The translations under genes and the position numbers were made by a program. DNA of 64,000 bases, taken from an uncultured Verrucomicrobiota bacterium. GTDB lineage: Bacteria; Verrucomicrobiota; Kiritimatiellia; CAIKKV01; CAITUY01. How positions within the stretch are numbered: position 1 is the stretch's first letter; each line of letters begins with the position of its first letter. The notes beneath the pieces are model-generated. The model was not told the origin of the DNA. It saw nothing but the letters and a program-made list of their open reading frames with translations, and ran no database searches. Location: the NCBI GenBank assembly GCA_964584205.1, contig CAZOZF010000002.1, positions 160 to 64,159 of the forward strand, in the 5' to 3' direction. Below are positions 1-18,949 of this stretch, one piece after another.

Positions 1-115
1 CGACGCGAGACTTCGGCGTGATGACGAGGGACCGAATCCGATCCTGAATAAATTCACCAGTGAATCCATGCGGCGAAATCCTCGCGAATATTTTGACGGT
101 CTGGCTCGGGTGATG

Positions 116-1297
116 TTAATAAACATTAGATCGAAGGTCTTTTGGCAAGGACGGGACATCAACCGGAATCCAGTTGTTGCGGAGCGACTTGGTCGCCGCG
201 CATCCTGTGGCCACACTCATGCGTCCAGCCAGTGGTGTTGCCAGTGGCCGTTTTCCCTCAAGAAGCATATCAATGAAGTCGCGGCAGATCTGGGGATCGG
301 CACCCCCGTGCCCGCCGGTGGCCGGTTTCACGGTCAGGTCGGAGTTCGCCAGGTTTTTCCAGCGGTTGGAACGATCACGAAGCCGCACAATGACCTTTGA
401 ACTGTCGTCCAGGTTTTCAATCCGGCCTTCCGTGCCGATCAGCGTGTAGTTCCGGCAGTAGTCCGGGGCGAAATGGCATTGCATGTAGCTGGCGCGGATT
501 CCTCCGTCGAGTTGCATCATCATGATGCTGCTATCTTCGACATCGACTTCCTTGCGGAAGACGCACATATCCATCTTGTTGTCAGACCGGTTATCGCGGG
601 ACTGGTACTCGACGCAAGTGTCCTTTTCTTTGCATTTCGGGCAGCGCAGGGTGTTGGGCTTGTCGCCTCCGTAGTAATCCAGTCCGCCCGTCGCCGCCAC
701 GCGAGTGGTGTACTGGCCGGTCAGCCAGTGGATCATGTCAATATCGTGGGATGCCTTTTGCAGGAGGAGCCCGGTGCTGTTCTTCGAATTGGCGTGCCAG
801 TCGTGGTAGTACCACCCTCCGCCCGGGCCGACGAAATGGCGCACCCATACGGCCTTCACTTCTCCGATGGCGCCGGAATCAAGGGCGTCCTTCATGACCC
901 TGAAGATATTCATATAGCGCATGTTGAAGCCGATCATGAACTGCTTTCCAGAGGTTTTCCAGGCCCGGAGCATGCGGTCGCACCCTTCGGTTGTGATCGC
1001 CATGGGTTTCTCGGTGAACACATGTTTTCCAGCTTCAAAGGCGTCGCAGACATATTGCTCATGAGTGAAGTCAGGACTCATGACCGCGACGGCATCAATA
1101 TCCTTTCGATCCAGAAGTTTCCTGTAGTCGCTGGTGATATATCCCTTGCTGTTGACATTTTCGCGATACCAGCTCAAGGCGTCCTTGGAAACATCGGCCG
1201 CGCCCGCCACGATGGAGCGTCCCTTGGGGGCGTGCCAATGTTTGGCCAAACTGCCGCGCCCTGCTGAACCGATGACTCCTATTCTGACTTTATTCAT
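116..1297 (-). CDS. Gfo/Idh/MocA-family NAD(P)-dependent oxidoreductase (sugar dehydrogenase-like)
   Basis: 393-aa ORF; N-terminal Rossmann signature RIGVIGSAGRG and the EKP motif (HVFTEKP) typical of Gfo/Idh/MocA; last gene of the minus-strand operon. Confidence 0.85.
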   Translation of the reverse strand: MNKVRIGVIGSAGRGSLAKHWHAPKGRSIVAGAADVSKDALSWYRENVNSKGYITSDYRKLLDRKDIDAVAVMSPDFTHEQYVCDAFEAGKHVFTEKPMAITTEGCDRMLRAWKTSGKQFMIGFNMRYMNIFRVMKDALDSGAIGEVKAVWVRHFVGPGGGWYYHDWHANSKNSTGLLLQKASHDIDMIHWLTGQYTTRVAATGGLDYYGGDKPNTLRCPKCKEKDTCVEYQSRDNRSDNKMDMCVFRKEVDVEDSSIMMMQLDGGIRASYMQCHFAPDYCRNYTLIGTEGRIENLDDSSKVIVRLRDRSNRWKNLANSDLTVKPATGGHGGADPQICRDFIDMLLEGKRPLATPLAGRMSVATGCAATKSLRNNWIPVDVPSLPKDLRSNVY

Positions 1298-1341
1298 GAG
1301 TACATTCCTTTCTGTCGGGTGCCGTTACGAGTCCGCGTCCG

Positions 1342-3489: not shown

Positions 3490-4568
3490 TTTGTTCCTTC
3501 ATCGTAAAATGCGGCAATATTTTCCAACGGTGTGTCAGCCTGTAGGTGGTGTGCCGGTGCCAGAATGTACCCTCCGCCCTGGCCGCATTCCGTTTTCAGG
3601 CGTCGTACTGCGGAGCGGACTTCATTGGGAGAACCGGCTGGCATGGTGTGCTGTACGCATAGTCCGCCGAATAAGGCCAGACGCTTGCCGTAGCGCTTCT
3701 TGAGCTTGAAGGGGTCGATCGCCATCGGCTGAACCGGGTTAAGCACGTCCAGACCGATCTCGACCAGATCGTCCAGGATGGCCTCGCAGTTGCCGCAACT
3801 GTGGTAGCAGAGCTTGATGGATGGGTTGATTTTTTTCGGTTCGGCAAAAAGCTTTGCGAATCGGGGCTTGAGAAATGTGCGCCACATGTCGACGGACATC
3901 ATCATGCCCTGCTGGTGCGCGACATCGTCGCCAAACCAGACCATGTCCGCACCCATTTCGGCATGTTTGCGTGACGCCACCAGCGGAAAACGCATCACCT
4001 TATCCATCAGCGCATGAACGTAGTCCGGCTCCAGCGCCATGTCGGCCATTAGGTCCTCCATTCCGCGTAGATACCATGCGGCCTCGAAGACGCTGATCTG
4101 GCTGGATCCAATGATCCACTTTTCCTTGCCGTAGAGCGCCTTGATTTTTCGGAATGTGTCGTATTGCGATTCCTCTTCCGGATCGGGTAGCTGGAATGTG
4201 TCCAGCTTACCCGGGTCGCCAGTCAGTGGAGGCCCCACGATTTCCGTGTACTCTCCACTTTCGTTGCGGGCCCAGCGCCAGCGGATGCCCCATGGGCAGG
4301 TGTACTCCGGCCTCGCTCCGCCGTAGAAGCTTAGTTCCAGTCCGACGCAGGTTTTTACCATGTCGTTGCCGAGTGCGACGCCAAGGTCGGCATCGTGGAT
4401 GCCGAGTGTATTGCGAAGCCGTTCGGATATTTCGGGTACAAAGCTGGCAAAAATCGGAGTTCGGTCGGGTTGTTGGTGATTCAGTGCCGTCAACACGCGT
4501 TCCCGGGATGTCATGGATGTGTTCATGTGTTTCAGTTTCTCACAGGGCGAGGGAAGAGAGAAGTTCAC
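3486..4568 (-). CDS. uroporphyrinogen decarboxylase (URO-D)/MtaA-like family protein; methyltransferase-like, function unknown
   Basis: 360 aa; overall URO-D/MtaA fold signature (RVLTALNHQQPDRTPIF...; LCYHSCGNCEAILDDLVEIGLDVLNPVQP...; GGYILAPAHHLQADTPLENI); alternative start at M15 (4526) possible. Confidence 0.65.
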   Translation of the reverse strand: MNFSLPSPCEKLKHMNTSMTSRERVLTALNHQQPDRTPIFASFVPEISERLRNTLGIHDADLGVALGNDMVKTCVGLELSFYGGARPEYTCPWGIRWRWARNESGEYTEIVGPPLTGDPGKLDTFQLPDPEEESQYDTFRKIKALYGKEKWIIGSSQISVFEAAWYLRGMEDLMADMALEPDYVHALMDKVMRFPLVASRKHAEMGADMVWFGDDVAHQQGMMMSVDMWRTFLKPRFAKLFAEPKKINPSIKLCYHSCGNCEAILDDLVEIGLDVLNPVQPMAIDPFKLKKRYGKRLALFGGLCVQHTMPAGSPNEVRSAVRRLKTECGQGGGYILAPAHHLQADTPLENIAAFYDEGTK

Positions 4569-4645
4569 ATTAGGTCAAATATCGAGTGAATTGGGGCGGG
4601 TCGCTCCGCCTGATACCCTGCCTTTATTTTCTCAATTTTCTGGTG

Positions 4646-5833
4646 TCAGGTCGTGCCCGTAACGTCGTCATTTGTCGCCAGTCGGCGTCGGTATTCCTTT
4701 GGCGAACGGCCGAAGTGCCGATGGAAAACCCGGCCCATGTTCTGAGCGTAGCCGAACCCGCTTTGTTCTGCAACCTGGTCAATATTGATGCTCGCGTGCC
4801 GCAAAAGCGCCATGGCCTTATGCAGCCGGGCGTTCACGACTTCGTTGTGCACGCTTCGTCCCAGTAGCCGGCGGAAGCGCCGCTGCAGGACGCTCCGGGA
4901 AAGGCCGGCCTGTTGCGCAACGGTATCCAATTGCACGGAGCCGGTACAATGGTTGCGGATGTAGTGGAGTGCCCGGGCGATGGCCGCGTCGTTTACGCCG
5001 AGAAAATCCGTGGATTCCCGGACTGCCACATACCAAGGCTTGATGAGTATGGGTGCCTTCGGCGGCTTTTTCCCCTGCATCAGGCGGTCGAGAAGGGCGG
5101 CCGCTTCGTAGCCGACTTGCACATGGTTGGCTTCGACGCTGGACAGGGTGGGCGTGATCATCTCGCAAAGGGTGCGGTCATTTCCTACACCCACCAATGC
5201 TACCTGGTCGCCGATCACCAGATCCGCCGTCTGGCATGCTTCCCGCACCAGTAGTCCCTGGACATCGGAACATAGCATGATGCCTGCCGGAAGTTGCAGG
5301 CCGCCAAGCCACTTGGCCACGCGCGACACGAGTGTATGCCAATCGGTTTTCTTGAAGCCCTGTCGTGAGAGCATAAACGCGCGGCATGTGTGGTTGCGCT
5401 CTGCCAGATACGCAGTGAAGCCAGCGCAACGTTCCTCCGACCAGTATTCACCGCTGATGCCGAGGAAGGCGAAGTGTATGAAGCCGCGGTCCAGGAGGTG
5501 TTCTGCGGCCATGGCGGCAATTGCGGCATTTTCCACGTGAACAAGGGGGATGCCATGTTTCCGATGTACCCCCAGAACGTCAACGACAGGAACCCGCTTG
5601 GTCGCAACCGCATTGAGGATACGCTCATCCTGAAGGCGGGCGATGATGCCGTCACCGCTCCAGTTCCGGAACCAGGAGGGCGGCGCTTGCTCCAGGTCGT
5701 GCGGCTGGGCATAGACGGACCAGGGGGCATGTTCACGGATGTACTGCCCGATGCCAAACAGGATGTCCTGACCTGAGGAGAGCGACGTCTCCACCAGAAG
5801 AGCGACCCGGGGAGGGCGGGGATTAAGCTTCAT
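4646..5833 (-). CDS. XylR-type transcriptional regulator (periplasmic-binding-protein-like sugar sensor + C-terminal AraC-family HTH)
   Basis: 395 aa; N-terminal LacI/PBP-like sensor fold, C-terminal AraC HTH (VQLDTVAQQAGLSRSVLQRRFRR...FGRSPKEYRR); first gene of the minus-strand operon, divergent from 5907. Confidence 0.85.
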   Translation of the reverse strand: MKLNPRPPRVALLVETSLSSGQDILFGIGQYIREHAPWSVYAQPHDLEQAPPSWFRNWSGDGIIARLQDERILNAVATKRVPVVDVLGVHRKHGIPLVHVENAAIAAMAAEHLLDRGFIHFAFLGISGEYWSEERCAGFTAYLAERNHTCRAFMLSRQGFKKTDWHTLVSRVAKWLGGLQLPAGIMLCSDVQGLLVREACQTADLVIGDQVALVGVGNDRTLCEMITPTLSSVEANHVQVGYEAAALLDRLMQGKKPPKAPILIKPWYVAVRESTDFLGVNDAAIARALHYIRNHCTGSVQLDTVAQQAGLSRSVLQRRFRRLLGRSVHNEVVNARLHKAMALLRHASINIDQVAEQSGFGYAQNMGRVFHRHFGRSPKEYRRRLATNDDVTGTT

Positions 5834-5906
5834 TTTGTGTCTCCCGGATAGGTTCCCTTTTTCATTTCAATGAGATAAAGAATAGTCCAAAATGGATGTA
5901 TGTTAA
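5834..5906. promoter_or_regulatory. AT-rich divergent intergenic region between the two regulator genes (candidate bidirectional promoter/operator)
   Basis: 73-bp spacer, markedly AT-rich relative to a ~59% GC background (tttttcatttcaatgagataaagaatagtccaaaatggatgtatgttaa), flanked by divergently oriented start codons. Confidence 0.4.
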
Positions 5907-6836
5907 ATGGCGTGGACAATTGAAAGTTTAACAAAAATGACGGCCGTAAATCTGTATTCTGAGTCTTTGTTCAGATGCCAGTCTCTCGCCAGGCGGCTGC
6001 GTGCCCCGTCGGACTATCTTGAAGGAGTTAAGGGTATTCTTCCGGTCCTGCCGGAAAATGTACTTCAATTTCATCGACATAATGCCCGCTACATTAGTAA
6101 AGGCAGGCCCTTCCTCCACCACCGCTTTGTACTTATGTCCTGCCTGAGGGAAGCCGGCTGCATTGTGGTGGATGGAACCATATATCGTATTAAACCCGGC
6201 CAGGGCTTTTTGGTCTTCCCTTATCAAGCCCATTATTTTACCCGGCCTGAACACCCAGAACAGCTCAGTTGGTTATTTACCACTTTCGAATACTCCGCGC
6301 CCGGAAGTCTTGAACTGTTGAGGAACATGCCGCTGGTTTTCAATGTTCAGGATCTGCAACGACTTGGCCAAACAACTGTCGCGTTTCTCCAAAACTGTCA
6401 CGCCACTTCAGGGATCACCCTTGACGTGCCTCTTGAATTAGCCCTGTTGCTCTCCGGCCTGTTAGTGCGTTATCAACAGCAGAGCACATTATCCCGATGC
6501 AAGATTAGGCCTGACAGCGCTCAAATTCTATTTTTGAACCCGCTCTTTATGCATATTAACCAGAATCTTGGATGTCGTATCCACATGAAGGATCTCGCTC
6601 AATGCGTCCACCTGTCGACCAGCCATCTTCAGGCCCGATTTAAGCATATGCTTGGAATTGGAATCGGTGAGTTTATCCGGCACACCCGGGTTCACCGGGC
6701 CTGCGTATTGCTCAAAGGGACAGACCTCACTGTGACTCAGGTTGCAGATAAATGCGGCTTTGCCTCGGTCTACGCTTTCAGTAGGACCTTTAGGTGCGTG
6801 ATTGGCGATCCTCCCTCCGTTTTCCGACAGGGTTAA
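5907..6836 (+). CDS. AraC-family transcriptional regulator (cupin-like N-terminal domain + HTH)
   Basis: 309 aa; C-terminal AraC HTH (MKDLAQCVHLSTSHLQARFK...FIRHTRVHRACVLLKGTDLTVTQVADKCGFASVYAFSRTFR). Confidence 0.85.
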   Translation: MAWTIESLTKMTAVNLYSESLFRCQSLARRLRAPSDYLEGVKGILPVLPENVLQFHRHNARYISKGRPFLHHRFVLMSCLREAGCIVVDGTIYRIKPGQGFLVFPYQAHYFTRPEHPEQLSWLFTTFEYSAPGSLELLRNMPLVFNVQDLQRLGQTTVAFLQNCHATSGITLDVPLELALLLSGLLVRYQQQSTLSRCKIRPDSAQILFLNPLFMHINQNLGCRIHMKDLAQCVHLSTSHLQARFKHMLGIGIGEFIRHTRVHRACVLLKGTDLTVTQVADKCGFASVYAFSRTFRCVIGDPPSVFRQG

Positions 6837-6906
6837 GTTGATGAGGAAGGGGGGGCTGATGGCTCTTGCCTTATCGCTTACTCATAGAAAGCTTTCACGT
6901 TTTTCA

Positions 6907-6951
6907 GTGACCTGATTTGTCCAAAAATAGCCCCGAAATGCTCTAGGCAGG
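6907..6951 (+). promoter_or_regulatory. conserved upstream motif copy D (gtgacctgatttgtccaaaaatagccccgaaatgctctaggcagg)
   Basis: One of six copies of a ~47-nt motif; lies ~68 bp upstream of the 7020 start of the 582-aa surface protein gene. Confidence 0.5.
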
Positions 6952-7019
6952 CAGTGTGGGTTATGAGAAAATAGATGACTGAGGACAAGGTTGGTCTTTC
7001 AGCAAGGGGTGGTGAAGAT

Positions 7020-8723
7020 ATGAAGTCAAAGTTTCTGAATCCTTGTAAGCCACATTTCAGTAGTCGGTTCATTCAAGTGGCTTGGGCATCGGTTGCGTTG
7101 TTCTGCTGTGCTTTCGGCGCCGGTACGGCCTCTGCGGAAGCCAATTACTGGGACAGCAATGGCGCCAGCGCCAGCTTCGGTGCGGCTGGGGGTACGTGGG
7201 GAACGGATGCCTTCTGGAGCACGAATAGCGCTGGCGACACTTTGCCATCCATCACCAATCCCTCAACCTCCGACGACCTCAACTTCGGCTACACCAGCAC
7301 CGGCTTGAGCAATGGGACTATCACTGTTGTCACCGGCAGTGCCAACAGTCTGACCTTTGCGGCCGGGTCGGGTGCCATTACGTTATCCGGCGGCACGATC
7401 ACCTTGGCCGATGCCGCCACGATTTCCGTGAATAACGCCCCTACAAATGTCATCAGTTCGGTTATTGCGGGGGCGGCCACCAGCTTGACCAAGGTCGGAA
7501 CGGGGACTTTGACGCTGAGCGGCCTCAATACCTACAGCGGCGGGACGACCATCAGCGCGGGAACGGTTATCGTCGGAAATACCAATGCGTTGGGAACGGC
7601 GGGTGCGATTACGTTGGGGGATGTCAATTCCGGCGCAAATGCGATTACGTTGGTGGCCACTGCCAATCCGTATTCTCGTGCCTTCACCGTGGCAAACTAT
7701 GGGGGCGTGGTGACCCTTGCAACCGCCGGCGGGAAGTTTTCGGGGGCGATCACCTTGAACCGTGGCGTTAAACTGATACCGAATTCAAATAATGCGGCCA
7801 ATTTTGATGGTGGTTTTTCGGGGTCGGGTGATCTGACAATTGCGAATTATAATGGTTATGGCGTCAATTTCCGCTTCGCCGACAATACCTTTACTGGCAG
7901 CGTATTTGTTCTTGCGGGTAGCACGTTTGGGGTTGGTGGTGGCCAGTCGCTAACCGGGTCGCTCAAAAGCCTGATTCCAGACTCAGCGACTGTGAATGTC
8001 CTTGGCACGATGATGTTGAGCGAGCTTGCGCGCAACGAAACTATCGATGCCCTGACCGGTTCAGGCTCTGTGACATTCGGACAAGTTGGCGACATGTTGA
8101 CCGTCGGTGGGGGCAATGGCTCTGGCACGTTCAGCGGCATTATTAGCACTTCTGGCTCCTTTGCCAAGACCGGCACCGGTGCGCAGACACTTACGGGTAT
8201 CAACACCTACACTGGAACCACAACGGTCAACGGCGGCACCCTTCTGGTGAATGGGAAAATTACGGGTGCTGGTGCCGTCACTGTCAATAGTAGCGGCACG
8301 TTGGGTGGAACGGGGATGGTCTCTGGCGCGGTGACCGTGACCTCGGGCGGGACATTCTCGCCCGGCGACCCGGCGGTGAGCAACGGCATTGGACGGGTTA
8401 CGGTTAGCAACGACGTGACATTGGCTACGAACGGGATCTTTGCAGCCCAGATCGCGGCAGGCGGACTGGTTGATATGTTGGTGTCGACGCGGACGATCTC
8501 GAACCAGAATGCGACTTTGTCGCTTTCGGTGCTGGATGTGAACGCTCTGAAGGCGGAGTTCTTTACGGTCATGGTGGCTTCCAACATCGTGGGGACGTTT
8601 AACGGGCTTCCGGGTGGAGCCGGTCTTTCGGTTGGGGGGCGAAGTTTCGTCATTTCCTATCCAGGGAATACGAACGTGGTATTACAGTCCATGTCATTGG
8701 GTATGCTTCTGATGGTGCAATAG
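7020..8723 (+). CDS. secreted autotransporter-associated beta-strand-repeat (TIGR02601-like) surface protein, 567 aa
   Basis: Gly/Thr/Asn-rich repeats LTLSGLNTYSGGTTISAGT / GTGAQTLTGINTYTGTTTVNGGTLLVNG; signal peptide begins at the internal Met (MKSKF...CAFGAGTASA) so 7020 is preferred over the ORF-track start 6975; hydrophobic C-terminus; shares a ~650-bp near-identical segment with 8862..16145. Confidence 0.75.
   Translation: MKSKFLNPCKPHFSSRFIQVAWASVALFCCAFGAGTASAEANYWDSNGASASFGAAGGTWGTDAFWSTNSAGDTLPSITNPSTSDDLNFGYTSTGLSNGTITVVTGSANSLTFAAGSGAITLSGGTITLADAATISVNNAPTNVISSVIAGAATSLTKVGTGTLTLSGLNTYSGGTTISAGTVIVGNTNALGTAGAITLGDVNSGANAITLVATANPYSRAFTVANYGGVVTLATAGGKFSGAITLNRGVKLIPNSNNAANFDGGFSGSGDLTIANYNGYGVNFRFADNTFTGSVFVLAGSTFGVGGGQSLTGSLKSLIPDSATVNVLGTMMLSELARNETIDALTGSGSVTFGQVGDMLTVGGGNGSGTFSGIISTSGSFAKTGTGAQTLTGINTYTGTTTVNGGTLLVNGKITGAGAVTVNSSGTLGGTGMVSGAVTVTSGGTFSPGDPAVSNGIGRVTVSNDVTLATNGIFAAQIAAGGLVDMLVSTRTISNQNATLSLSVLDVNALKAEFFTVMVASNIVGTFNGLPGGAGLSVGGRSFVISYPGNTNVVLQSMSLGMLLMVQ
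7509..8155. repeat. ~650-bp direct repeat, copy 1 (~90% nt identity to 14859..15505)
   Basis: By-eye alignment of nt 7509-8155 with 14859-15505 at a constant offset of 7350; encoded peptide runs NTYSGGTTISAGTVIVGNTNALG...GNGSGTFSG[IV]ISTSG and is ~90% identical. Confidence 0.8.
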
Positions 8724-8750
8724 CAGGGATTCGATAGTCCTTCTTCTGGT

Positions 8751-8797
8751 GTGACCCGATTCACCCGAAAAAAGACCTAAACCGCTCTCTTCAGGGG
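8751..8797 (+). promoter_or_regulatory. conserved upstream motif copy A (gtgacccgattcacccgaaaaaagacctaaaccgctctcttcagggg)
   Basis: ~64 bp upstream of the start of the 2427-aa gene. Confidence 0.5.
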
Positions 8798-8861
8798 AAA
8801 TAGGAAGTGGGAGAATATTCAGATGAAGATAAATTGATATTTTTTTTGAGTCAGGGGGGGT

Positions 8862-11800
8862 ATGAGAGAAAACCTATCAAGTTGTAGAATCATTCTGGGG
8901 GTCCTCGCGGTCATCTGGACCACTTTGAGTTCCTCGCAGGCGGTAACCACTGGTTTTAATCAAACAACCGTGGGGCCTCACGATTATAATACGGCCGGCA
9001 ATTGGGTCGAGAACTCGCTTCCCGGCAATGGCATCTGGGACAGTTCGCTGACGTTGGGGGCGAATCAATTCGTTACATTCACCGGCGACACCTCATTGAC
9101 CACCGCGTTGAATTTCAATTATGCCGGCAACAAATCCCTCACGCTTTATTCTTCTGCGGCTGGGACCGTCAACCTTACGCTCGGTGGTGACATTGGCGTG
9201 AATACCAGTGGCGGCACCTCGGCAAACGTCACAATTGGTAATGCGACCCAGATCCTTAATGTCAACCTAGGCGGTACAACCCGCACCATGACGGTGGCGT
9301 CCGGTCGAACGTTGACCCTTCAGAATGTCGTTTCTAGTGGTGGCATCATAAAGGGGGGTGACGGCACGCTGACGCTGAACGGCAACAACACCTACAGCGG
9401 TGGCACCACCATCAGCGCGGGAACGAATATTCTCGGAAATGCCAATGCTTTGGGCACATCGGGAACGATCACGTTGGGCTCTTCCGGTTCCGGGGCGAGG
9501 TTGATGATTGCTGGACTTACCATTACACGCCCTATCACAGTGTCTGCAGGAACGGGTACAGTAGGTATTGGTGCACAGGGCGGTACCCTTAGTGGAGTGA
9601 TCGCGCTAAACCGTCCCGTCAGCTTGAGTGGAGTTAATGTCTATGGCGGCATTTCCGGGACGGGCGATGTGACTATCGACTCTTCATTCTACAGTGGATA
9701 TCTTATAACCAGTTTCGCCGCCGTGTCCGGCGGCGGCGTAGCCAATACCTTCAACGGAAATTTGTATATTCTTTCCGGTGCCACTTTGAACGTTGGCAGC
9801 GGTTGGGCGTCGAGCATCAGTGCGATTCCTGACTCATCGACAGTGAATGTAGTTGGCACTTTAAGTATATTAAAAAGCGCGAATGGCGAAACCATTGATG
9901 CTCTGACCGGAAACGGCATTGTGACTGCGGCTTCGAGTGGTGGAACGTTAACCATTGGCAGCGCCAATGGTTCCGGTGCTTTCAGCGGTGCTATCGGTGG
10001 TTCTGGCGCCATCATCGTCAAGACGGGTATCGGGACCGAGATCTTCAGCGGCGTCAATACCTACACGGGAACCACGACCGTCAATGGCGGGGCGCTCCTC
10101 ATCAACAGCCCCGGGTCCCTTCATGCCAGCAGTGCGGTTTCCGTGAATCCCGTCGGCTGGGCAACCCTCGGGGGAAACGGTACTATTAACGGTTCGGTTG
10201 CGGTAGCTGCGGGCGGTTTTTTGGCTCCAGGTAGCGCCTCCGGCACCATCGGCAAACTCTCCCTGTCCAGCACGCTGACCCTGAACGGGGGCTTTCTGGC
10301 CTTTGATCTCAACGCGGATACAACAGCCGGTACGACCTACGATCAGATCGCCATTACCAGTACCTTGACTATGAGTGGTGTGAACGTCATTCAGCTCAGT
10401 TCCCCCTCGGGTTCGATTGCGGTGGGAACCTATACGCTCATGACCTTTGCCTCCTCGACGGCAAGCACGTTCAAATTCCCGAATGGAACCGAATCCATGA
10501 TCATCGGGAGTTCCACCCTTACTCTCATTAACGGCACCACGAGCCTGACTCTAACCGTGGCTAACGCAAGCGCTTCAGTACCGCCCTTTGCTGCCTTGAC
10601 GTGGAAAGGTAATTCCAGCGGCACATGGGACACGTCAACCGCGAACTGGCTCAATAGCGCCGCCGTCTCGTCGGCCTACGCTGAAGGGAACCAGGTTGCG
10701 TTTGATGACACCGCTTCCGGGAACTTCTCCGTCAGCGGGGGGACGGTCTCGCCCCTTTCCGTGACTGTCGGCAACACCGTCAACGCCTACACGATTTCGG
10801 CCGCGATTGCGGGCCCCACGCCTTTACTCAAAATCGGGTCGGGTACCTTGACTCTCTCTGGCGCCAACACGTACAGTGGCGGTACAACGCTCTCCGCAGG
10901 AACGCTCAATCTTGCCAATACAACGGCCCTGGGTGCTACTGCCAGCACGCTTACAATCAATGGGGGAGCCATACTCGACGGCAATGTGACGATTGCGAAT
11001 GCCAACGCTCAGAATTGGAACGGTGATTTCACCTTCAGCGGGACCAGCGGAAGTTTGAACCTGGGAACCGGTGCGGTGACGCCGAGTGCCAATCGTACGG
11101 TCACCGTTTCGGCCAATACCCTGACCGTAGGCGGGGCGATCGGCGGTGGTGCCAAGAGTTTGACCAAGCTCGGCGACGGAACCCTGATCCTTTCCGGGGC
11201 GAACACCTACAGTAGCACGACGACGGTGGGTGGCGGTACATTGAAGATAGACGCCGGGGCCGGTGGCGCTCTCAATTCCTCGTCGCCGCTGACCTTCAAC
11301 ACCGGTGGTGGCGTGTTCAATTATGATAATGCGAATGCCGGGGGCGCCAAAAGTCAGAGCCTGGGGGCGCTGACGTTCAGTGCGGGGGATGGAGTGGTGA
11401 AGGTTACGCGTACGGCGATTCAGAATGTTTTTCTGACGCTAGCTTCTAGGGCCCGCACAGCCGGAGCTTCGGGGAACTTCGTTCTCACCGACACGGCTGG
11501 CGGTGGCGTCAATGGAACGAATCTCAAAATTGCATTAACGACACCGCCCACGGCCAGTGTCTTCATCGACCAAGGCACCTTTTTCAACGGATCCTCGTAC
11601 GCCGCCTATGACTCAGGCGGGTTCGTGCGGGCAATGAATTATACCACCGATAATAGCAGTGCTGGTGGCAGCGTGGGGAGCAGCTTCACGACTTTTACGG
11701 TCGCCAGCGCGAATGGCAAACACGTCGATCTTGGCACAGCCGGAATCATTTCGGCTGCGGGGACTGAAAGCATAAAGAGTTTGCGTATTGGCGGTGTTAA

Positions 11801-14800
11801 TACCGTTACCGTGGGTGCCGGGAATACTTTAACAATCGCAAACGGGGGTATCCTCAAGACGGGTAGTAATGCCTCGTCAATTAGTGGCGGAAACGCAATT
11901 TCGCCTACTGTTGAATTAGTGGTACGCACAGATACCAGTAGTGATGCGCTGACGATCAGCACGCCGGTTACAGGATCGCAGGCTCTGACCAAATCTGGCG
12001 CCGGCACAGTGACATTTTCCGGCGCGAACACCTACAGCGGCGCGACCAAGGTCGATGCGGGCACTCTTCTGGTGAACAATACGCATATTGTCAACAGCTC
12101 GACTGAAGCTTACACCGTGTTGAACGCTGCCACGCTGGGCGGTAGTGGTCAAATTAAATTGAATCAGGTTATCACCGTCAACAGTGGCGGGTTCCTTGCC
12201 CCTGGTAACGGGCTCAATTCGTCGCTGAAAATTGATGGTGGTACCAAGGCCACCGCGGGACTTCTTACCATGTCCTCCGGTGCGAAGTTCAGCTTTTCCT
12301 TGGATGCCACCGGAGCGGGTAACCCGACCATGCTGGACTTCTGGAATTACGCGGCTAACGATTTAGCGCTCAACAGCAACGTGGTCAACCTCACGCTTTC
12401 CGGGAATCACACGCCGGGCACTTACACAAATAGCATTTTTCGCTTCTACAGCGACACGGGCAGCTCGGCGACCCCCCACGGTATCAGTTCCGGCCTGACC
12501 ATTGGTACCGTGGATTCCGGCATCTCCTCGCCCTCCATCATCTACAGTGCAAATACGATCGACGTCGCCTACACGATCCTGCCCGGGGCGGCCGATGCGA
12601 TGCGATCGACCCTGACGCCGACGAGTGCGAGTATCACGGCCAATGGGATAGCCTCACAGATCTTGACCGTTCAGGCGAAAGATTCCTACGGCAACTACCT
12701 GACCTCTGGCGGCGCGACCGTGACGATCACGAAATCCTCCGGTACGGGTACGATTGGTAGCGTGACGGACAACAACAACGGCACCTATACGGCGACGGTG
12801 ACTGCGCCGGAGACCACGGGTAGCGGCGTCTTTGTGGCGACATTGGGTGGGGACCAGGTCAAGAGCGGAGAAGGTAGCCAGACGCAGGCGGCGGTCTCCT
12901 ATGTCTCTGGCCCGGCGGATCACCTTACGATCACCTCTTCGATCTCTGGCCTGATCGCTGGCGATACGAGGGAGATTACGGCTGAAATCCGGGATGGAAC
13001 CGGGAATCTGTGCACGGGAGATTCGACCTCGGTTCATTTCTCGCAGTCGGGTGCTGGTAGCGTCAGCGGTCTCCCCGCCGATGTGGCGGCCGTTTCCGGC
13101 ATTGCGACCCAGCAGGTTACAGGCAGTGCTGGGGGTTCAGTTACCATCACCGCGCATGTGGACGGGTTGACTGATGGCAGCACGACATTCACAGTGCTCC
13201 AATCCTCGGCAAGCGCCTATTCGATTCAGGTTTCTGGGAGCAGCAGTGCGACCACGGCGGCAGGCAGTGGCGTGCATCTGACGGTGATTGCACTGGATGG
13301 CTCCGGCAACACGATGACCGATTTCGACTCCGACAAGGCCCTTTCGTTCTATGGACTGGTCAGTTCCCCGAACAGCACGGCGCCGACGGTCACCGACAAG
13401 AATGGCGTCGCAAGATCGGTCACATCCACGGTCGGTTTGCCCAACACCACGCTCACATTTGTCGATGGCGTGGCGGATGTGGGTGGCGTAGATAATCCGG
13501 TGCTAACGGCGTATAACGGAATCAGCTCAGCGGTGATGTTGCATTGCTCGGATGGAACTAAGAGCACGGAAAGTACCCATGGCTCTGGCTTGAGTTTAAC
13601 AGTTAATCCCGCCAGTGCGAGCACGCTGACGGTGAACGGGTTCCCAACCTCCGCAACGGCGGGAATACCGGGCGATGTGACGGTGACGGCCAAGGATCCC
13701 TATGGAAACACAGACCCAAGTTATGCCGGAACAATCACATTCACCGTTGGGGTGGCTGATACCGGGAAGACAGTTCCGTCCGACTTTACGTTTATACCGG
13801 CCACGCACAATGGAGCGCATGCGTTTAGCGGTGGTGTGACACTCACGAAGGCAGTCACTGGCGGCGGCCAGTCGATCATTGCGACGGACAAGAATGCCGG
13901 GAGCATTAACGGGACACAAAGCGGTATCACGGTCAATCCCGGTACGGCGAATATGCTGGCACTCGATTCGGGGGACGGGCAGCTCGGGAGCGGGTCGGCG
14001 GCTCTTGCCAGTCCCTTCGTGGTAAAGGTGACTGATGTCTACAACAATCTGGTGCCGGGCGTCACGGTTGATTTTGCGGTCTCAACGTATCCTGCGAGTG
14101 CGACGGGGCAAGCGTTGAGCCCCGCGAGTCCCGCCACAGGTAGTGATGGCAAGGCGTCCAGCACTCTAACCTTGGGAGACAAGCAGGGGGCCTATACGGT
14201 TACTGCGACGGCCTCCGTTCCCAACGGTAGCCCCGTGACCTTCACCGCCACCGCCGCGCCGATAGGATCTGTGATCAAGGCTGGTACGGGAACCGACCTT
14301 GCGGCCGTCGGAAGTTGGGATGGTGGTGCCGTGCCGGGTTCCGGCAACAAGGCCTATTGGTCGAGTGCTTCACTCGGCGCAAATCTGACACTGGGTTCCT
14401 CTGCGTCGTGGGGGAGCATCACAGTTGAGGGCGCCCTAACAGACATCGGTATCACCGGGGCGGGTACGCTCACGCTCGGCGAGAACGGCATCGATCTGTC
14501 GGCATCCCCAGTCAATCTTTCGATCGGAAACCCTATCACGCTTGGAGCCGCCCAGACATGGGTCGTGAACTCGGCTAAGACGTTGACGGCATCGGGAATC
14601 GTCGGTGGAAGCGTGGCTAGCGCACTGGTCAAGGACGGCGCGGGCACGCTTACCCTATTGCATACCAACACGTACGGTGGTGATACGACGATCAGCAACG
14701 GAACGTTCGAAATCGGCGGCGCGGGTCAATTGGGTGGCGGAACGTATACCGGTGCCATCACGAACCACGGCCTATTGCGAGTGAACAGTTCCGCCAGTCA

Positions 14801-16145
14801 GACGCTGGGCGGCATCGTCAGCGGTAACGGAAGTCTGATTAAATCCAGCACAGGGACATTGACGCTGAACGGCATTAATACCTACAGCGGTGGGACGACG
14901 ATCAGCGCAGGTACGGTTATCGTTGGAAATACCAATGCGTTGGGCTCGTCGGGTACGATTACGTTGGGGGATGTCAATTCCGGCGCGAATGCGATTACGT
15001 TTGTGGCCACTGCCAATCCGTATTCTTGCCCCTTCACCGTGGCCAACTATGGGGGCACGGTGACCCTCACCACCGCTGGCGGGAAGTTTTCGGGAGCGAT
15101 CACGTTGAACCGCAACGTTAAATTGGTCCCGAATTCAAATAATGCGGCCAATTTTGATGGTGGTTTTTCCGGGTCGGGTGATCTGACGATTACGAATTAT
15201 AATGGTTATGGCGTCGCTCTCCGCTTTGCCGACAATACCTTTACTGGGAATGTATATGTTCTCGCGGGTAGCACGTTGAGTGTTGGTAGTAGCCAGGCGC
15301 TAAACGGGTCGCTCAAAAGCCTGATTCCCGACTCGTCTGTCGTAAATGTCCTCGGCACGATGACTGTGGCCTTACTTGGGCGCAACGAAACAATCGATGC
15401 CCTGACTGGTTCCGGCTCGGTGACGTTCGGTCAGGTTGGTGACACGTTGACCGTCGGTGGGGGTAATGGCTCCGGTACGTTCAGTGGCGTTATCAGCACC
15501 TCAGGCGGTATCATCAAGATCGGAACCGGCACGCAGACTCTCAGCGGTAATAACACCTACACAGGCGTAACGACGATCTCAAATGGCGCGCTGAAAGTTT
15601 CGGGGGGCTTGCTGGGTAATACCGCCATTTCGCTAGCCGGCACCGGCACCTTGGCTATCCAGCCGGGCAGTGCCACGGCGATTAGCGCGGGCAATACGGC
15701 TACCGCTTCGGCAGGCGCGACGTTGAACCTCGGTAGCAGGACCTTTGACATGACAGATTCAGCCGTTAGCACCTTTAGCCTTATGCAGGGGTCGAGCTTT
15801 TCGGGAGCCGCCCTGACGATTACCACGGGCGCAACCTTGAAGTTCAATCTTGGCAACACGGGTGCCGACCTGTTGGCGGTTACCAAGGCTGCTGCTGTGA
15901 GTGGAACGATTAATGTGACCCTTGATGCCACGGGTGCGGTTTCGCTGACACAGGGCACCTTCGCTCTCATTACGGCGGCTTCCGGTCTGATCAGTAGCAA
16001 CCCGACCTGGCAGTTCACCGGTGGCGGAACCACCCGGATTATCACCATCGGGGGGGCGGACTACGGACTGACCCTCACCCCCACGGATACGGCGATTTCG
16101 GTACACTGTTTCGCTATATGCGGCTCAGTTTATACGATTCGGTAA
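8862..16145 (+). CDS. giant (2427 aa) secreted surface/adhesin-like protein: autotransporter-associated beta-strand repeats + multiple bacterial Ig-like (Big_1/invasin-like) domains
   Basis: RBS aggggg upstream; signal peptide MRENLSSCRIILGVLAVIWTTLSSSQA; many LTLSGANTYSGGTT.SAGT repeat units; central Ig-like block (ITANGIASQILTVQAKDSYGNYL..., TSSISGLIAGDTREITAEIRDGTGNL..., VNGFPTSATAGIPGDVTVTAKDPYGNTD...); C-terminal module is a near-duplicate of gene 7020..8723. Confidence 0.85.
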   Translation: MRENLSSCRIILGVLAVIWTTLSSSQAVTTGFNQTTVGPHDYNTAGNWVENSLPGNGIWDSSLTLGANQFVTFTGDTSLTTALNFNYAGNKSLTLYSSAAGTVNLTLGGDIGVNTSGGTSANVTIGNATQILNVNLGGTTRTMTVASGRTLTLQNVVSSGGIIKGGDGTLTLNGNNTYSGGTTISAGTNILGNANALGTSGTITLGSSGSGARLMIAGLTITRPITVSAGTGTVGIGAQGGTLSGVIALNRPVSLSGVNVYGGISGTGDVTIDSSFYSGYLITSFAAVSGGGVANTFNGNLYILSGATLNVGSGWASSISAIPDSSTVNVVGTLSILKSANGETIDALTGNGIVTAASSGGTLTIGSANGSGAFSGAIGGSGAIIVKTGIGTEIFSGVNTYTGTTTVNGGALLINSPGSLHASSAVSVNPVGWATLGGNGTINGSVAVAAGGFLAPGSASGTIGKLSLSSTLTLNGGFLAFDLNADTTAGTTYDQIAITSTLTMSGVNVIQLSSPSGSIAVGTYTLMTFASSTASTFKFPNGTESMIIGSSTLTLINGTTSLTLTVANASASVPPFAALTWKGNSSGTWDTSTANWLNSAAVSSAYAEGNQVAFDDTASGNFSVSGGTVSPLSVTVGNTVNAYTISAAIAGPTPLLKIGSGTLTLSGANTYSGGTTLSAGTLNLANTTALGATASTLTINGGAILDGNVTIANANAQNWNGDFTFSGTSGSLNLGTGAVTPSANRTVTVSANTLTVGGAIGGGAKSLTKLGDGTLILSGANTYSSTTTVGGGTLKIDAGAGGALNSSSPLTFNTGGGVFNYDNANAGGAKSQSLGALTFSAGDGVVKVTRTAIQNVFLTLASRARTAGASGNFVLTDTAGGGVNGTNLKIALTTPPTASVFIDQGTFFNGSSYAAYDSGGFVRAMNYTTDNSSAGGSVGSSFTTFTVASANGKHVDLGTAGIISAAGTESIKSLRIGGVNTVTVGAGNTLTIANGGILKTGSNASSISGGNAISPTVELVVRTDTSSDALTISTPVTGSQALTKSGAGTVTFSGANTYSGATKVDAGTLLVNNTHIVNSSTEAYTVLNAATLGGSGQIKLNQVITVNSGGFLAPGNGLNSSLKIDGGTKATAGLLTMSSGAKFSFSLDATGAGNPTMLDFWNYAANDLALNSNVVNLTLSGNHTPGTYTNSIFRFYSDTGSSATPHGISSGLTIGTVDSGISSPSIIYSANTIDVAYTILPGAADAMRSTLTPTSASITANGIASQILTVQAKDSYGNYLTSGGATVTITKSSGTGTIGSVTDNNNGTYTATVTAPETTGSGVFVATLGGDQVKSGEGSQTQAAVSYVSGPADHLTITSSISGLIAGDTREITAEIRDGTGNLCTGDSTSVHFSQSGAGSVSGLPADVAAVSGIATQQVTGSAGGSVTITAHVDGLTDGSTTFTVLQSSASAYSIQVSGSSSATTAAGSGVHLTVIALDGSGNTMTDFDSDKALSFYGLVSSPNSTAPTVTDKNGVARSVTSTVGLPNTTLTFVDGVADVGGVDNPVLTAYNGISSAVMLHCSDGTKSTESTHGSGLSLTVNPASASTLTVNGFPTSATAGIPGDVTVTAKDPYGNTDPSYAGTITFTVGVADTGKTVPSDFTFIPATHNGAHAFSGGVTLTKAVTGGGQSIIATDKNAGSINGTQSGITVNPGTANMLALDSGDGQLGSGSAALASPFVVKVTDVYNNLVPGVTVDFAVSTYPASATGQALSPASPATGSDGKASSTLTLGDKQGAYTVTATASVPNGSPVTFTATAAPIGSVIKAGTGTDLAAVGSWDGGAVPGSGNKAYWSSASLGANLTLGSSASWGSITVEGALTDIGITGAGTLTLGENGIDLSASPVNLSIGNPITLGAAQTWVVNSAKTLTASGIVGGSVASALVKDGAGTLTLLHTNTYGGDTTISNGTFEIGGAGQLGGGTYTGAITNHGLLRVNSSASQTLGGIVSGNGSLIKSSTGTLTLNGINTYSGGTTISAGTVIVGNTNALGSSGTITLGDVNSGANAITFVATANPYSCPFTVANYGGTVTLTTAGGKFSGAITLNRNVKLVPNSNNAANFDGGFSGSGDLTITNYNGYGVALRFADNTFTGNVYVLAGSTLSVGSSQALNGSLKSLIPDSSVVNVLGTMTVALLGRNETIDALTGSGSVTFGQVGDTLTVGGGNGSGTFSGVISTSGGIIKIGTGTQTLSGNNTYTGVTTISNGALKVSGGLLGNTAISLAGTGTLAIQPGSATAISAGNTATASAGATLNLGSRTFDMTDSAVSTFSLMQGSSFSGAALTITTGATLKFNLGNTGADLLAVTKAAAVSGTINVTLDATGAVSLTQGTFALITAASGLISSNPTWQFTGGGTTRIITIGGADYGLTLTPTDTAISVHCFAICGSVYTIR
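9370..10020. repeat. diverged third copy of the ~650-bp module (protein-level ~55-60% similarity to 7509..8155 / 14859..15505)
   Basis: Peptide LTLNGNNTYSGGTTISAGTNILGNANALGTSGTITLG...SISAIPDSSTVNVVGTLSILKSANGETIDALTGNG...GSANGSGAFSGAIGGSG is colinear with the two near-identical copies. Confidence 0.55.
14859..15505. repeat. ~650-bp direct repeat, copy 2 (~90% nt identity to 7509..8155)
   Basis: See copy 1; lies inside the 3' part of the 2427-aa gene. Confidence 0.8.
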
Positions 16146-16199
16146 CGGGACTCGCCCTGCCTTTTCATCCTCCGGGCCCGTGGGTTCGCCCTTGGCAAT

Positions 16200-16246
16200 T
16201 TGACCCGATTCGCCCTAAAAAAAACTCATAATGCTCTATGCAGACC
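16200..16246 (+). promoter_or_regulatory. conserved upstream motif copy B (ttgacccgattcgccctaaaaaaaactcataatgctctatgcagacc)
   Basis: ~70 bp upstream of the GH95 start at 16316; contains TTGACC and cATAAT hexamers. Confidence 0.5.
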
Positions 16247-16315
16247 GCCGTGAATGTGGGAGAACGTTTCGAGTTCATTTGCCGATTAATACAATGCAGG
16301 AGAAGGGTGGTCGTA

Positions 16316-18949
16316 ATGAGAAAAATGTCTACGATGGGGTGTATGCATTTCCTGGCGCTTGTGTTTGTAGGGTTTATCATCCCGGCTTTCGCCAGCATGG
16401 AAAATATCCTGTGGTATCAGAAGCCCGCCGGTTACTCCATCAATGAAGCGCTGCCCGTTGGTAACGGGAAACTGGGGGGGCTGATTGATGGGGTGCCAAT
16501 CGTCGAGCGTGTGGTGCTCAACGAAATCAGTCTCTGGACCGGGGATGAAAAGACGGCGACCGGCGGGTACGATCAAATGGGTTCTTACCAGACGCTGGGC
16601 GTTCTCCTTGTTGATACCGCCGCCCGGCTGGGCGAGGATGAAGTAAAGGTGCCGACCGTGATCTGCGCCAGCAGGCAGGAACCCTATTATCAGAGTGAAG
16701 GTATTGCGGCGAGTGTGGACAACAAGCTTGGAACCAAATGGTGTGTAGTGCCCGATGGAGTGCCGCTGATCTGGGAAGTCAGGCTGCCCGAGGCCCGCGT
16801 GGTCAATCAGTACTCGTTCACCTCAGCCCCTGATGTCCCGGAACGGGATCCGTCCACCTGGGAGTTCAGTGGATCCAGCAACGGCAGGGACTGGATCACC
16901 TTGGATCGCCATGAGAATGATAAGCCTTTTACAAAACGCTGCGAAGTAAAGGCTTTTACATGCACGAATACCCAGGCGTTCAAGAGCTACAGGGTGACGT
17001 TTGCTCCCAATAAACGCGTCATGCATTTCCAGCTTTCCGAAATATCCATTCCGGGCGTGGTATTTCCGGCCCGAGAGGCTCCCGCCACGGTGGAGGCCTA
17101 TCGCCGGTCGCTTGATATTTCCACCGCACTGCATTGGGTGTCTTACAAGTTGGGTGACATGAACTGCCGGCGCGAAACGTTTGCCTCGCATCCGGATGAG
17201 GTGATGGTCATGCGGCTGACGGCGGATAAACCCGGGTCATGCAGTGGGGCGGTTCAACTTAAAGGCGGTCACCGTGAGGAGACCCAGGCATTCGGTAATG
17301 GATTGGAATTTTCCGGAGTACTCACCAATAACCTGAAGTACGACACCCGCGTTGTGGTACTGAATGACGGGGGCAAGGTGCGGTCAAGCGAGGGCCGGGT
17401 GTTTTTCGATAAATGTGATAGCGTTACGATCCTGCTGGCGGCCGCTACGGATTATACGCCCGATCATTCCCGAGCCTACCGGGGTGGGGATCCCAAGGAG
17501 ATTGTCGGGAAGCGGCTTGCCGCAGCGGCTAGGAAGACTTATGACGCCCTGAAGACGGCGCATATCAAAGAGTACCAGTCCTATTTCAGCCGGGTGGCGC
17601 TTGATGTCGGGGCGACCCCGGCGGATCGGTTGTCCCTTCCAACCGATAAGCGGAAGAGCCTGCATGCCGAGAAGGGGGGGGATGCCGATCTCGAGGAGTT
17701 GATGTTCCAATATGGACGCTACCTGCTGATCAGTTGTTCGAGACCCGGCGGATTGCCGGCGAACCTGCAGGGGCTGTGGAACGACAACAATACGCCCCCA
17801 TGGCACAGTGATTACCACGCGAACATCAATGTTCAGATGAACTACTGGCTTGCCGAACCGGCTAATCTGTCCGAGTGTCACACGACCTTTTTGAATTTAA
17901 TTACGAGTCAGCTTCCGGCATGGCGCAAGGCAACGGCGGAAGCCAGGGAATTCAAGTCGGAGACAGGTAAGCCGGTGGGGTGGGCCGTCCGGACCTCGCA
18001 TGGCATCAATGGTGACATGGGCTGGCAGTGGGACATCACGGCGAACGCCTGGTATTGCCAGCATTTCTGGTGGCACTATGTCTATACTGGCGACAAGGCT
18101 TGGCTGAAGACTGTGGCCTATCCCATCATCAAGGAAATCTGTGAATTCTGGGAAGTGCGCATGAAGGCGTTGCCGGATGGAACATTGGTGGTTCCGAATG
18201 GCTGGTCGCCGGAGCATGGTCCCGTCGAGGATGGTGTGAGTTACAACCAGGAGATTGCGTGGGATCTCTTTAATAACTTTGTCGCGGCCAGTGAGGCTTT
18301 GGGTGTGGATGCGGTATACCGGAAGAGGATTGCGGATATGCGCGACAAGCTGATGGTTCCAAAAATCGGGAAATGGGGACAGCTCCAGGAGTGGATGGTT
18401 GACCGGGATGATCCCAATGATCACCATCGCCACACCTCGCATCTGTTCGGGCTTTTCCCGGGGGAACAGTTCAGTGTTTCCAAAACTCCCGCCTTGGCGG
18501 CCGGGGCCAAAAAATCACTCGACGCGCGGGGGCCGGTGGGTGATGTCAGGGAGTGGTCATTTGCCTGGCGAACCGCGCTCTATGCCCGGTTGCGTGAGGG
18601 TGAAAGCGCGTACACGATGTTCAGGAACCTTTTGAACGACCGGAATACCTGTCTCAATCTGTTTGGCAATCATCCGCCGATGCAGATGGATGGCAATTTT
18701 GGTATCACCGCAGGGATCTGCGAGATGCTGATGCAGTCCTACACCGGTACGATCGAGCTGTTGCCTGCGATTCCCAGGGCCTGGCCGAGTGGAATCGTGA
18801 AAGGGTTGAAGGCCCGTGGCAATTTCACCGTGGACATTGCCTGGGCCGACGGCAAGGTTGTTTCCTATAGCATTCGTTCTCCGGATCGTCGTAAAGTTAC
18901 GGTGCGCGTTAATGGCGAGGAAAAAATCGTGAAGACGGATGAACTCTAA
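16316..18949 (+). CDS. glycoside hydrolase family 95 (alpha-L-fucosidase/alpha-L-galactosidase type) with an inserted F5/8 type C (discoidin) carbohydrate-binding domain
   Basis: GH95 motifs LPVGNGKLGGLIDG...LNEISLWTGDE, WHSDYHANINVQMNYW and HRHTSHLFGLFPG; F5/8-C-like insert (LGTKWCVVPDGVPLIWEVRLPEARVVNQYSFTSAP...WEFSGSSNGRDW); start set to the Met preceded by an aggaga RBS (ORF-track start 16238 is probably too far upstream). Confidence 0.88.
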   Translation: MRKMSTMGCMHFLALVFVGFIIPAFASMENILWYQKPAGYSINEALPVGNGKLGGLIDGVPIVERVVLNEISLWTGDEKTATGGYDQMGSYQTLGVLLVDTAARLGEDEVKVPTVICASRQEPYYQSEGIAASVDNKLGTKWCVVPDGVPLIWEVRLPEARVVNQYSFTSAPDVPERDPSTWEFSGSSNGRDWITLDRHENDKPFTKRCEVKAFTCTNTQAFKSYRVTFAPNKRVMHFQLSEISIPGVVFPAREAPATVEAYRRSLDISTALHWVSYKLGDMNCRRETFASHPDEVMVMRLTADKPGSCSGAVQLKGGHREETQAFGNGLEFSGVLTNNLKYDTRVVVLNDGGKVRSSEGRVFFDKCDSVTILLAAATDYTPDHSRAYRGGDPKEIVGKRLAAAARKTYDALKTAHIKEYQSYFSRVALDVGATPADRLSLPTDKRKSLHAEKGGDADLEELMFQYGRYLLISCSRPGGLPANLQGLWNDNNTPPWHSDYHANINVQMNYWLAEPANLSECHTTFLNLITSQLPAWRKATAEAREFKSETGKPVGWAVRTSHGINGDMGWQWDITANAWYCQHFWWHYVYTGDKAWLKTVAYPIIKEICEFWEVRMKALPDGTLVVPNGWSPEHGPVEDGVSYNQEIAWDLFNNFVAASEALGVDAVYRKRIADMRDKLMVPKIGKWGQLQEWMVDRDDPNDHHRHTSHLFGLFPGEQFSVSKTPALAAGAKKSLDARGPVGDVREWSFAWRTALYARLREGESAYTMFRNLLNDRNTCLNLFGNHPPMQMDGNFGITAGICEMLMQSYTGTIELLPAIPRAWPSGIVKGLKARGNFTVDIAWADGKVVSYSIRSPDRRKVTVRVNGEEKIVKTDEL

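Follow-up and report, generated by a model that had tools for sequence, protein, structure and literature searches.

Two adjacent genes for PATR beta-helix surface proteins, a short one (S) and a long one (L), share a bounded DNA module that bears the signature of gene conversion. They lie in a 64,000-nt stretch of an uncultured Verrucomicrobiota bacterium (contig CAZOZF010000002.1; the whole stretch is referred to as the window), and comparison with the orthologous gene pair of a relative, L001, revealed a mosaic in which the flanks group by orthology and the module core by genome. We consider it very likely that the S module was copied over the C-terminal module unit of L (Lc) in the window lineage, that an independent conversion in the opposite direction, Lc to S, took place in the lineage of L001, and that both exchanges affected old paralogous PATR units and were probably anchored in the PATR repeats.

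A PATR-to-PATR module shared by S and L

S occupies 7020-8723 on the forward strand and encodes 567 aa from M16 (the mechanical open reading frame (ORF), 6975-8723, has 582 aa); L follows on the same strand at 8862-16145 and encodes 2427 aa, with PATR units, a central Ig-like run and, at the C-terminus, a further PATR unit. The two genes contain a direct repeat, detected by a repeat search, whose copies start exactly 7350 bp apart. This confirms the first-pass annotation, which had reported directly oriented copies 7.35 kb apart at 7509-8155 and 14859-15505; the identity between them, put there at about 90%, is 86.7% (561 of 647 positions alike, gap-free), slightly under that figure and well over 80%. 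The whole similar stretch, 7500-8228 versus 14850-15578, is 84.6% identical and also ungapped. Along the ungapped profile at the 7350 offset, identity stays at a background of about 25-35% up to about 7497, rises sharply to values of 75-100% in the 30-nt windows between 7500 and about 8228, and is back at background level beyond; the 5' edge is abrupt at about 7500, and the 3' edge fades gradually from about 8150 to 8228. Chance or low-complexity similarity was rejected, as identity at the remaining in-frame offsets between S and L averaged 28.4% and did not exceed 35.5%. S and L are both read in frame 0, and with an offset that is a multiple of three the module copies are in codon register.

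The module corresponds to a single structural unit that reaches from one PATR repeat to the next (aa 173 to about 430 of S, aa about 1994 to about 2250 of L). The copy in S (7500-8228, forward strand; aa about 176-418 of the 582-aa ORF) extends from PATR repeat 1 (7491-7592, forward strand; KVGTGTLTLSGLNTYSGGTTISAGT...), a conserved 5' anchor in which the conversion tract begins, to PATR repeat 2 (8166-8267, forward strand; KTGTGAQTLTGINTYTGTTTVNGGT...), a conserved 3' anchor just before which the window tract stops and inside which the L001 tract stops. The copy in L, Lc, covers 14850-15578 on the same strand (aa about 1997-2239). A third, diverged copy, which the first-pass annotation had also noticed at about 9370-10020, is located at 9360-10082 (forward strand) near the N-terminus of L, where it runs from the PATR at aa 164 to the PATR at aa 387, the unit ending at aa about 410. 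It is 61.5-62.6% identical to the S and Lc copies in DNA and 54-56% in protein, with indels and an 82.6% island within its first 109 nt, and it provides an unconverted internal control.

Mosaic phylogeny in comparison with a relative

L001, a JGI metagenome contig, encodes a 561-aa orthologue of S (70% identical) and has the same gene order as the window: URO-D-like, XylR-like, AraC, S, L (2409 aa) and GH95. The flanks of the module are 85-86% identical in DNA between the two, and the BLAST alignment breaks off inside the module. L001 contains its own internal repeat, 5361-6070 versus 12660-13369, with 82.6% identity. We compared all four module copies and their flanks in a codon alignment, the prefixes w and l denoting the copies of the window genome (wS, wL) and of L001 (lS, lL). 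In the flanks, the nucleotide identity of orthologues is 73-97% in most alignment windows, except for two downstream wL-lL windows at 56-60%, and that of within-genome paralogues is 31-55%. In the module core the relation is reversed: orthologues are 47-68% identical and within-genome paralogues 76-96%. The informative sites are split in the same way, with 242 orthologue-grouping versus 5 paralogue-grouping sites in the flanks and 125 paralogue-grouping versus 1 orthologue-grouping site in the core (7640-8150). At the protein level, the paralogous modules are 83% (wS/wLc) and 81% (lS/lLc) identical and the orthologous ones 57% (wS/lS) and 60% (wLc/lLc), while the third, unconverted unit shows 90% identity between the window and L001.

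This mosaic pattern is the classical signature of gene conversion. The gene order is unchanged and the module position is occupied in both S and L of both genomes; since, in addition, the match is ungapped and in frame, a pre-existing unit was replaced and no unit was inserted. Gene conversion between paralogous PATR genes had been one of two proposals of the first-pass annotation, which had suggested a comparison with relatives as a check, and it is this proposal that the comparison bears out.

Further relatives were scarce. Protein searches with S and L returned only the self match and one 70% orthologue, all other matches being at or below 55% or partial; in the genome collection the best matches reached 35-45%, none of them from a close relative, and a metagenome scan for further S/L pairs yielded only three loci, L082, L083 and L084.

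Direction and independence of the conversions

The edges of the tracts reveal the direction of the two events. Over 7560-7640, lL stands apart from the concordant wS, wL and lS at 13 sites, as against 2 sites of the paralogue type. Here the orthologues wS and lS share one state, which is therefore the ancestral S type and was acquired by wL. Over 8150-8190, wL, lS and lL agree and wS is odd at 9 sites; in this case the orthologues wL and lL share their state, which is therefore the ancestral Lc type and was acquired by lS. The reverse directions, L to S in the window and S to L in L001, were rejected, as they predict paralogue grouping at 7560-7640 and an odd lS at 8150-8190.

In S coordinates, wL is S-like over 7505-8149, with the last orthologue-type site before this tract at 7499 and the first one after it at 8150, and lS is Lc-like over 7650-8192. 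The breakpoints are not the same in the two lineages, and the simplest history is one of two independent conversions that ran in opposite directions over overlapping tracts with different ends. The S copy would then have been the donor in the window lineage and the converted tract in L would cover about 14855-15499; the remainder of the Lc copy, up to 15578, represents older similarity within the PATR repeat.

Age of the conversions and constraint on the module

The synonymous divergence (dS) between the paralogous copies of the core is 0.36 in the window genome and 0.53 in L001, estimates that come from about 170 codons and are not separated from the values of the neighbouring genes (0.27-0.74). 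Between the window and L001, dS is 0.40 for the orthologous flanks of the module, 0.38 for the AraC gene, 0.27 for the XylR-like gene, 0.54 for the URO-D-like gene and approximately 0.74 for GH95, and it mostly lies at 0.33-0.70 in 150-codon windows of L. As the paralogues are about as diverged as the two genomes, the conversions are about as old as the split between the window and L001 and not recent. The recent duplication considered in the first-pass annotation is thus replaced by the exchange of a pre-existing unit whose copies (dS 0.36) have diverged about as much as the flanks (dS about 0.4). Nor did its suggestion of ongoing conversion hold up: the window copies have diverged by 13%, their differences are evenly spread, with a longest perfect run of 41 bp at 7779-7819 (permutation P = 0.18), and nothing indicates newer tracts. 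In L001 a perfect run of 53 bp exceeds expectation (P = 0.003); at most, this hints weakly at heterogeneity.

The ratio of nonsynonymous to synonymous divergence (dN/dS) between the paralogues is 0.27 in the window genome and 0.18 in L001, so both copies are still under purifying selection. Convergence or selection as the cause of their similarity is excluded, since synonymous sites were homogenised as well. Diversifying selection as the source of the high between-genome divergence of the module was rejected for a similar reason, as synonymous sites are saturated there too (core dS 1.2-1.4). This divergence reflects the comparison of an old S type with an old Lc type, which are as far apart as units are in general (53-61% identity), and not accelerated protein evolution.

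Outside the module, L contains islands of 32-62% identity to its orthologue against a background of 80-98%, namely at 8862-9311 (aa 1-150), 11412-11862 (aa 851-1000) and 15612-16145 (the C-terminal tail), and aa 1351-1500 show an unusually low dS of 0.13. L is a broader mosaic, in which other segments may also have been exchanged or be evolving fast.

Proposed mechanism and alternative histories

In the scenario that we favour, the ancestor would have carried the S unit and the Lc unit, each of about 240 residues from PATR to PATR, as old paralogues with about 55-60% protein identity, like other units. After the split, about 645 bp of the S unit (S coordinates 7505-8149) would have been copied non-reciprocally over the Lc unit in the window lineage, and about 545 bp (7650-8192) would independently have been copied from Lc over S in the lineage of L001. 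Both exchanges most likely began and were resolved within the conserved PATR repeats that bound the unit on either side, which would amount to a cassette replacement via flanking homology. Afterwards both copies would have drifted under purifying selection down to the present 86.7% identity. The tract ends coincide with PATR repeats, where the units are 70-90% alike and DNA conservation among them is highest. We infer anchoring in the repeats because recombination within the ancestral cores was probably prevented by their divergence, wS versus lL being only about 50-65% identical in DNA.

Several points weigh against this history or parts of it. Only two lineages possess a clear orthologous pair, which leaves n = 2 for calling the conversion recurrent. 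L082, used as an outgroup to polarise the module types, was uninformative, all inter-type identities being 53-61%, so that the direction depends on the tract edges and on the assumption of a single tract. The donor of the core could also have been a third paralogue or another strain, the source genome beyond the window being unseen. Furthermore, the dS of 0.53 between the L001 paralogues is nominally larger than the 0.40 of the flanking orthologues, which would date the L001 event before the split. On the functional side, the glycan-binding role suggested for the two proteins rests on a moderate fold match (template modelling (TM) scores of 0.43/0.57; see below) together with the gene neighbourhood.

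Among the alternatives, an outside donor, be it a paralogue elsewhere in the genome or a horizontal or allelic transfer, might have replaced the module in both genes of one lineage, with spread to the neighbouring gene. Such an origin would fit the strong divergence of the core between the genomes (dS 1.2-1.4; 57-60% aa identity) and the low-identity islands of L (aa 1-150, aa 851-1000 and the C-terminal tail), which would show that L does take up foreign or paralogous segments. We nevertheless regard it as distinctly unlikely, as the core divergence equals the ordinary divergence of resident units (53-60%) and more events would be needed than with two conversions, which explain every edge pattern from resident copies alone.

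We also considered an active device for size or phase variation, in which the direct repeats recombine today, either by a 7.35-kb deletion or by repeated re-conversion, and switch surface forms. If the repeats crossed over, the reading frame would be kept and a 591-aa S/L chimera with an intact ORF would result, the 41-bp perfect run could be used for strand exchange, and homologues with S-like termini exist at lengths of 2056 and 2607 aa. The deletion put forward in the first-pass annotation left no sign, however: both full-length genes are kept in two near-identical assemblies and in the diverged L001 (dS about 0.4). In the second public assembly of the same organism, the 2427-aa protein differs by one substitution, A16E (window region 8907), within the predicted signal peptide, and the sequence is identical to the window across the module. 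The even scatter of the 13% divergence (P = 0.18) without newer tracts and a paralogue dS close to that between the species argue in the same direction. RecA-dependent recombination falls steeply above 10% divergence, as expected from the behaviour of RecA and MutS. Homologous recombination between copies that differ by 13% and match perfectly over no more than 41 bp should be inefficient. No feature of programmed variation of the pilE/pilS, msp2 or tprK type was found at the locus: there are no silent cassettes and no invertase or recombinase genes nearby, and both copies sit in full-length genes preceded by the same 43-nt element. Taken together, we judge a present-day switch to be very improbable.

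Hardly tenable, finally, is a recent segmental duplication that newly inserted the module from one gene into the other, for which the restriction of high DNA identity to a bounded block might speak, because L001 has the module at both positions between orthologous flanks, the unit lengths are collinear and the window pair is gap-free, lL and wS keep two distinct ancestral types at the tract edges, and the divergence in dS is not recent.

Variation in size is evident among distant homologues. The locus L082 encodes a 2607-aa ORF (3563-11386) that resembles S at both its N-terminus (aa 16-239, 50%) and its C-terminus (aa 2147-2607, 52%), between which lie about 1900 extra residues, and L083 a 2056-aa ORF (152-6322) with an S-like N-terminus. 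Compared to the 567-aa S, these homologues contain about 1500-1900 extra residues of repeat units, and units in adjacent genes of L082 are 74-79% alike in patches. This pattern indicates that protein size in the PATR family evolves by internal gain or loss of modules. Upstream of its PATR genes, L082 also contains a 234-bp tandem duplication (1658-1891 / 1888-2121; 98% identical).

Domain architecture and predicted fold

The N-terminus of S resembles a signal peptide, and the likely start is at 7020 (M16), because the L001 orthologue begins at an equivalent MKSKF; this fits the 567 aa given in the first-pass annotation. S contains two PATR (PF12951) repeats and L eight, with 61 and 165 bits, respectively, compared to a curated cut-off of 27; TIGR02601 is matched with 60 bits by S and 173 bits by L (cut-off 19.85). 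L additionally carries Invasin_D3 and Big_1 Ig-like domains at about aa 1246-1795, so that its description as beta-strand-repeat modules around invasin-like Ig domains was correct. Neither protein matched the beta-barrel translocator PF03797 or any other barrel family at E <= 0.01. As no barrel was detected, S and L are not classical (type Va) autotransporters. PATR beta-helix proteins without a barrel form a large family that has been annotated before. The source-named homologues include Planctomycetota and Verrucomicrobiota, with metagenome-assembled genomes of Planctomycetia, Opitutaceae and Verrucomicrobiia among the sources of the better-scoring ones; a literature search on PATR proteins in Verrucomicrobia returned nothing specific.

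The AlphaFold model of S (predicted local distance difference test (pLDDT) 86.2, predicted TM score (pTM) 0.81) is a beta-helix with a long series of short strands, followed by a small beta-sandwich-like region at the C-terminus. Its best match in the PDB (Foldseek) is 7JVI (E = 3.7e-5, TM 0.43/0.57, sequence identity 16%), i.e. CapCBM89. This right-handed beta-helix binds xylan, is non-catalytic and originates from a polysaccharide-degradation cluster (PMC8810776). The next matches are the autotransporter passengers Ssp, IgA1 protease, pertactin, EspP and Ag43 (E = 1e-4 to 1e-3).

Genomic neighbourhood and a conserved upstream element

Upstream of S lie genes for a XylR-like/AraC regulator (4646-5833, reverse strand) and an AraC-family regulator (5907-6836). 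Further upstream, a 715-aa ORF (1342-3489, reverse strand) between GFO/IDH/MocA oxidoreductase and URO-D-like genes has no Pfam match at E <= 0.001. Downstream of L, a long same-strand run of glycoside-hydrolase (GH) and esterase genes spans 16238-56453, many of them with N-terminal NPCBM domains. It comprises three GH95-like genes, NPCBM/beta-helix proteins, two GH78 rhamnosidases, GH43, SASA esterases, GH27/GH36 alpha-galactosidases, a GH127-like gene and GH2. This content suggests that the cluster degrades a polysaccharide rich in fucose, rhamnose, galactose and arabinose.

A third relative, found via its GH95 (L162; ENA ERZ19048635, GROS21-1 scaffold_213, 1-7881), shows the same glycoside-hydrolase run, and its GH95 belongs to the same 90%-identity cluster as that of the window. 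Upstream it has an SSF transporter and small genes in place of the AraC/PATR pair and was thus unusable as a third comparison genome. Because the hydrolase run occurs there without this pair, the block of regulator and PATR genes is a variable accessory at the head of the hydrolase cluster.

A 43-nt element, TGACCYGAT-N(8)-AAA...GCNCT-N(3)-CAG, is found upstream of S (6908-6950), L (8752-8794) and GH95 (16201-16243). It ends 68-70 nt ahead of the likely start codons of S and L; in the case of GH95 the mechanical ORF start (16238) lies within it, and a comparable spacing would require a putative internal Met near 16316 to be the true start. The element is kept at the same three positions in L001 (4772, 6605 and 14002) and is absent from L162 and from 2.26 Mb of other fetched loci. 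It has no Rfam match and no sigma-70 consensus, and scans of 5800-16400 for RNA families, sigma-70 promoters and terminators gave nothing relevant. The element may be an operator or promoter that co-regulates S, L and GH95, perhaps via the adjacent AraC regulator. S and L are probably co-regulated glycan-binding or adhesive surface proteins of the adjacent glycoside-hydrolase cluster.

Relation to known systems and implications

The mechanism proposed here, concerted evolution by gene conversion, is well known for surface-protein paralogues, of which the S/L pair is an ordinary, clean example. In Helicobacter pylori, exchanges among babA/babB/babC, homA/homB and sabA/sabB are frequent, occur within strains and during infection, and alter receptor binding or expression. 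Concerted evolution of the outer-membrane adhesin paralogues of this species by gene conversion is treated in, e.g., PMC4552749 and PMC2795765. The S/L pair shares with this system bounded non-reciprocal tracts between surface-protein paralogues and within-genome paralogues that are closer than between-genome orthologues. In contrast, the two events in S and L date far back (dS 0.36-0.53), the genes lie next to each other and are not dispersed, no population variation was seen, and the proteins are barrel-less PATR beta-helices of an uncultured environmental bacterium. A similar relation exists to the FLO adhesin genes of yeast and to further repeat-rich genes for cell-surface proteins, whose internal repeats are, according to PMC3512402, substrates for intergenic recombination that gives rise to chimeric or resized proteins. 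Here, too, internal repeats of surface adhesins recombine between genes; but whereas chimeras have been shown experimentally in this eukaryote, S and L document conversion only, and size variation is confined to distant homologues.

With regard to structure, the S model shares the right-handed beta-helix with PATR repeats with type Va autotransporter passengers (pertactin, Ag43, SPATEs, Ssp), from which S and L differ in that no C-terminal barrel was detected and L adds invasin/intimin-type Ig domains. Its best fold match, CBM89, is also a beta-helix and also belongs to a polysaccharide-degradation locus. Unlike CBM89, which is appended to a GH10 enzyme of a Bacteroidaceae bacterium (PMC8810776), S and L are stand-alone PATR proteins, and binding is only predicted from the fold.

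It is somewhat unusual that the same pair of units was homogenised twice, in opposite directions and in sister lineages, with the nearer third unit still orthologous. With two lineages at hand, this could stem from a structural hot spot of recombination or from selection for matched S and L modules. A more specific version of the latter, in which gene conversion keeps a two-protein glycan-capture device matched to the hydrolase cluster, seems rather unlikely to us; if true, the same glycan-binding surface would be shown at two distances from the cell, or S and L would dock on a common partner.

As a caution for similar loci, an identity of about 87% between paralogous blocks implies neither recent or ongoing exchange nor an active deletion switch. 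Environmental bacteria are rich in giant PATR beta-helix proteins, whose function and evolution are poorly understood. For this family, the locus provides a quantified case of unit-wise cassette replacement between neighbouring genes that is apparently anchored in the PATR repeats, and the adjacent cluster of fucosidases, rhamnosidases and galactosidases, together with the match to a carbohydrate-binding fold, suggests a role of these proteins in glycan capture.

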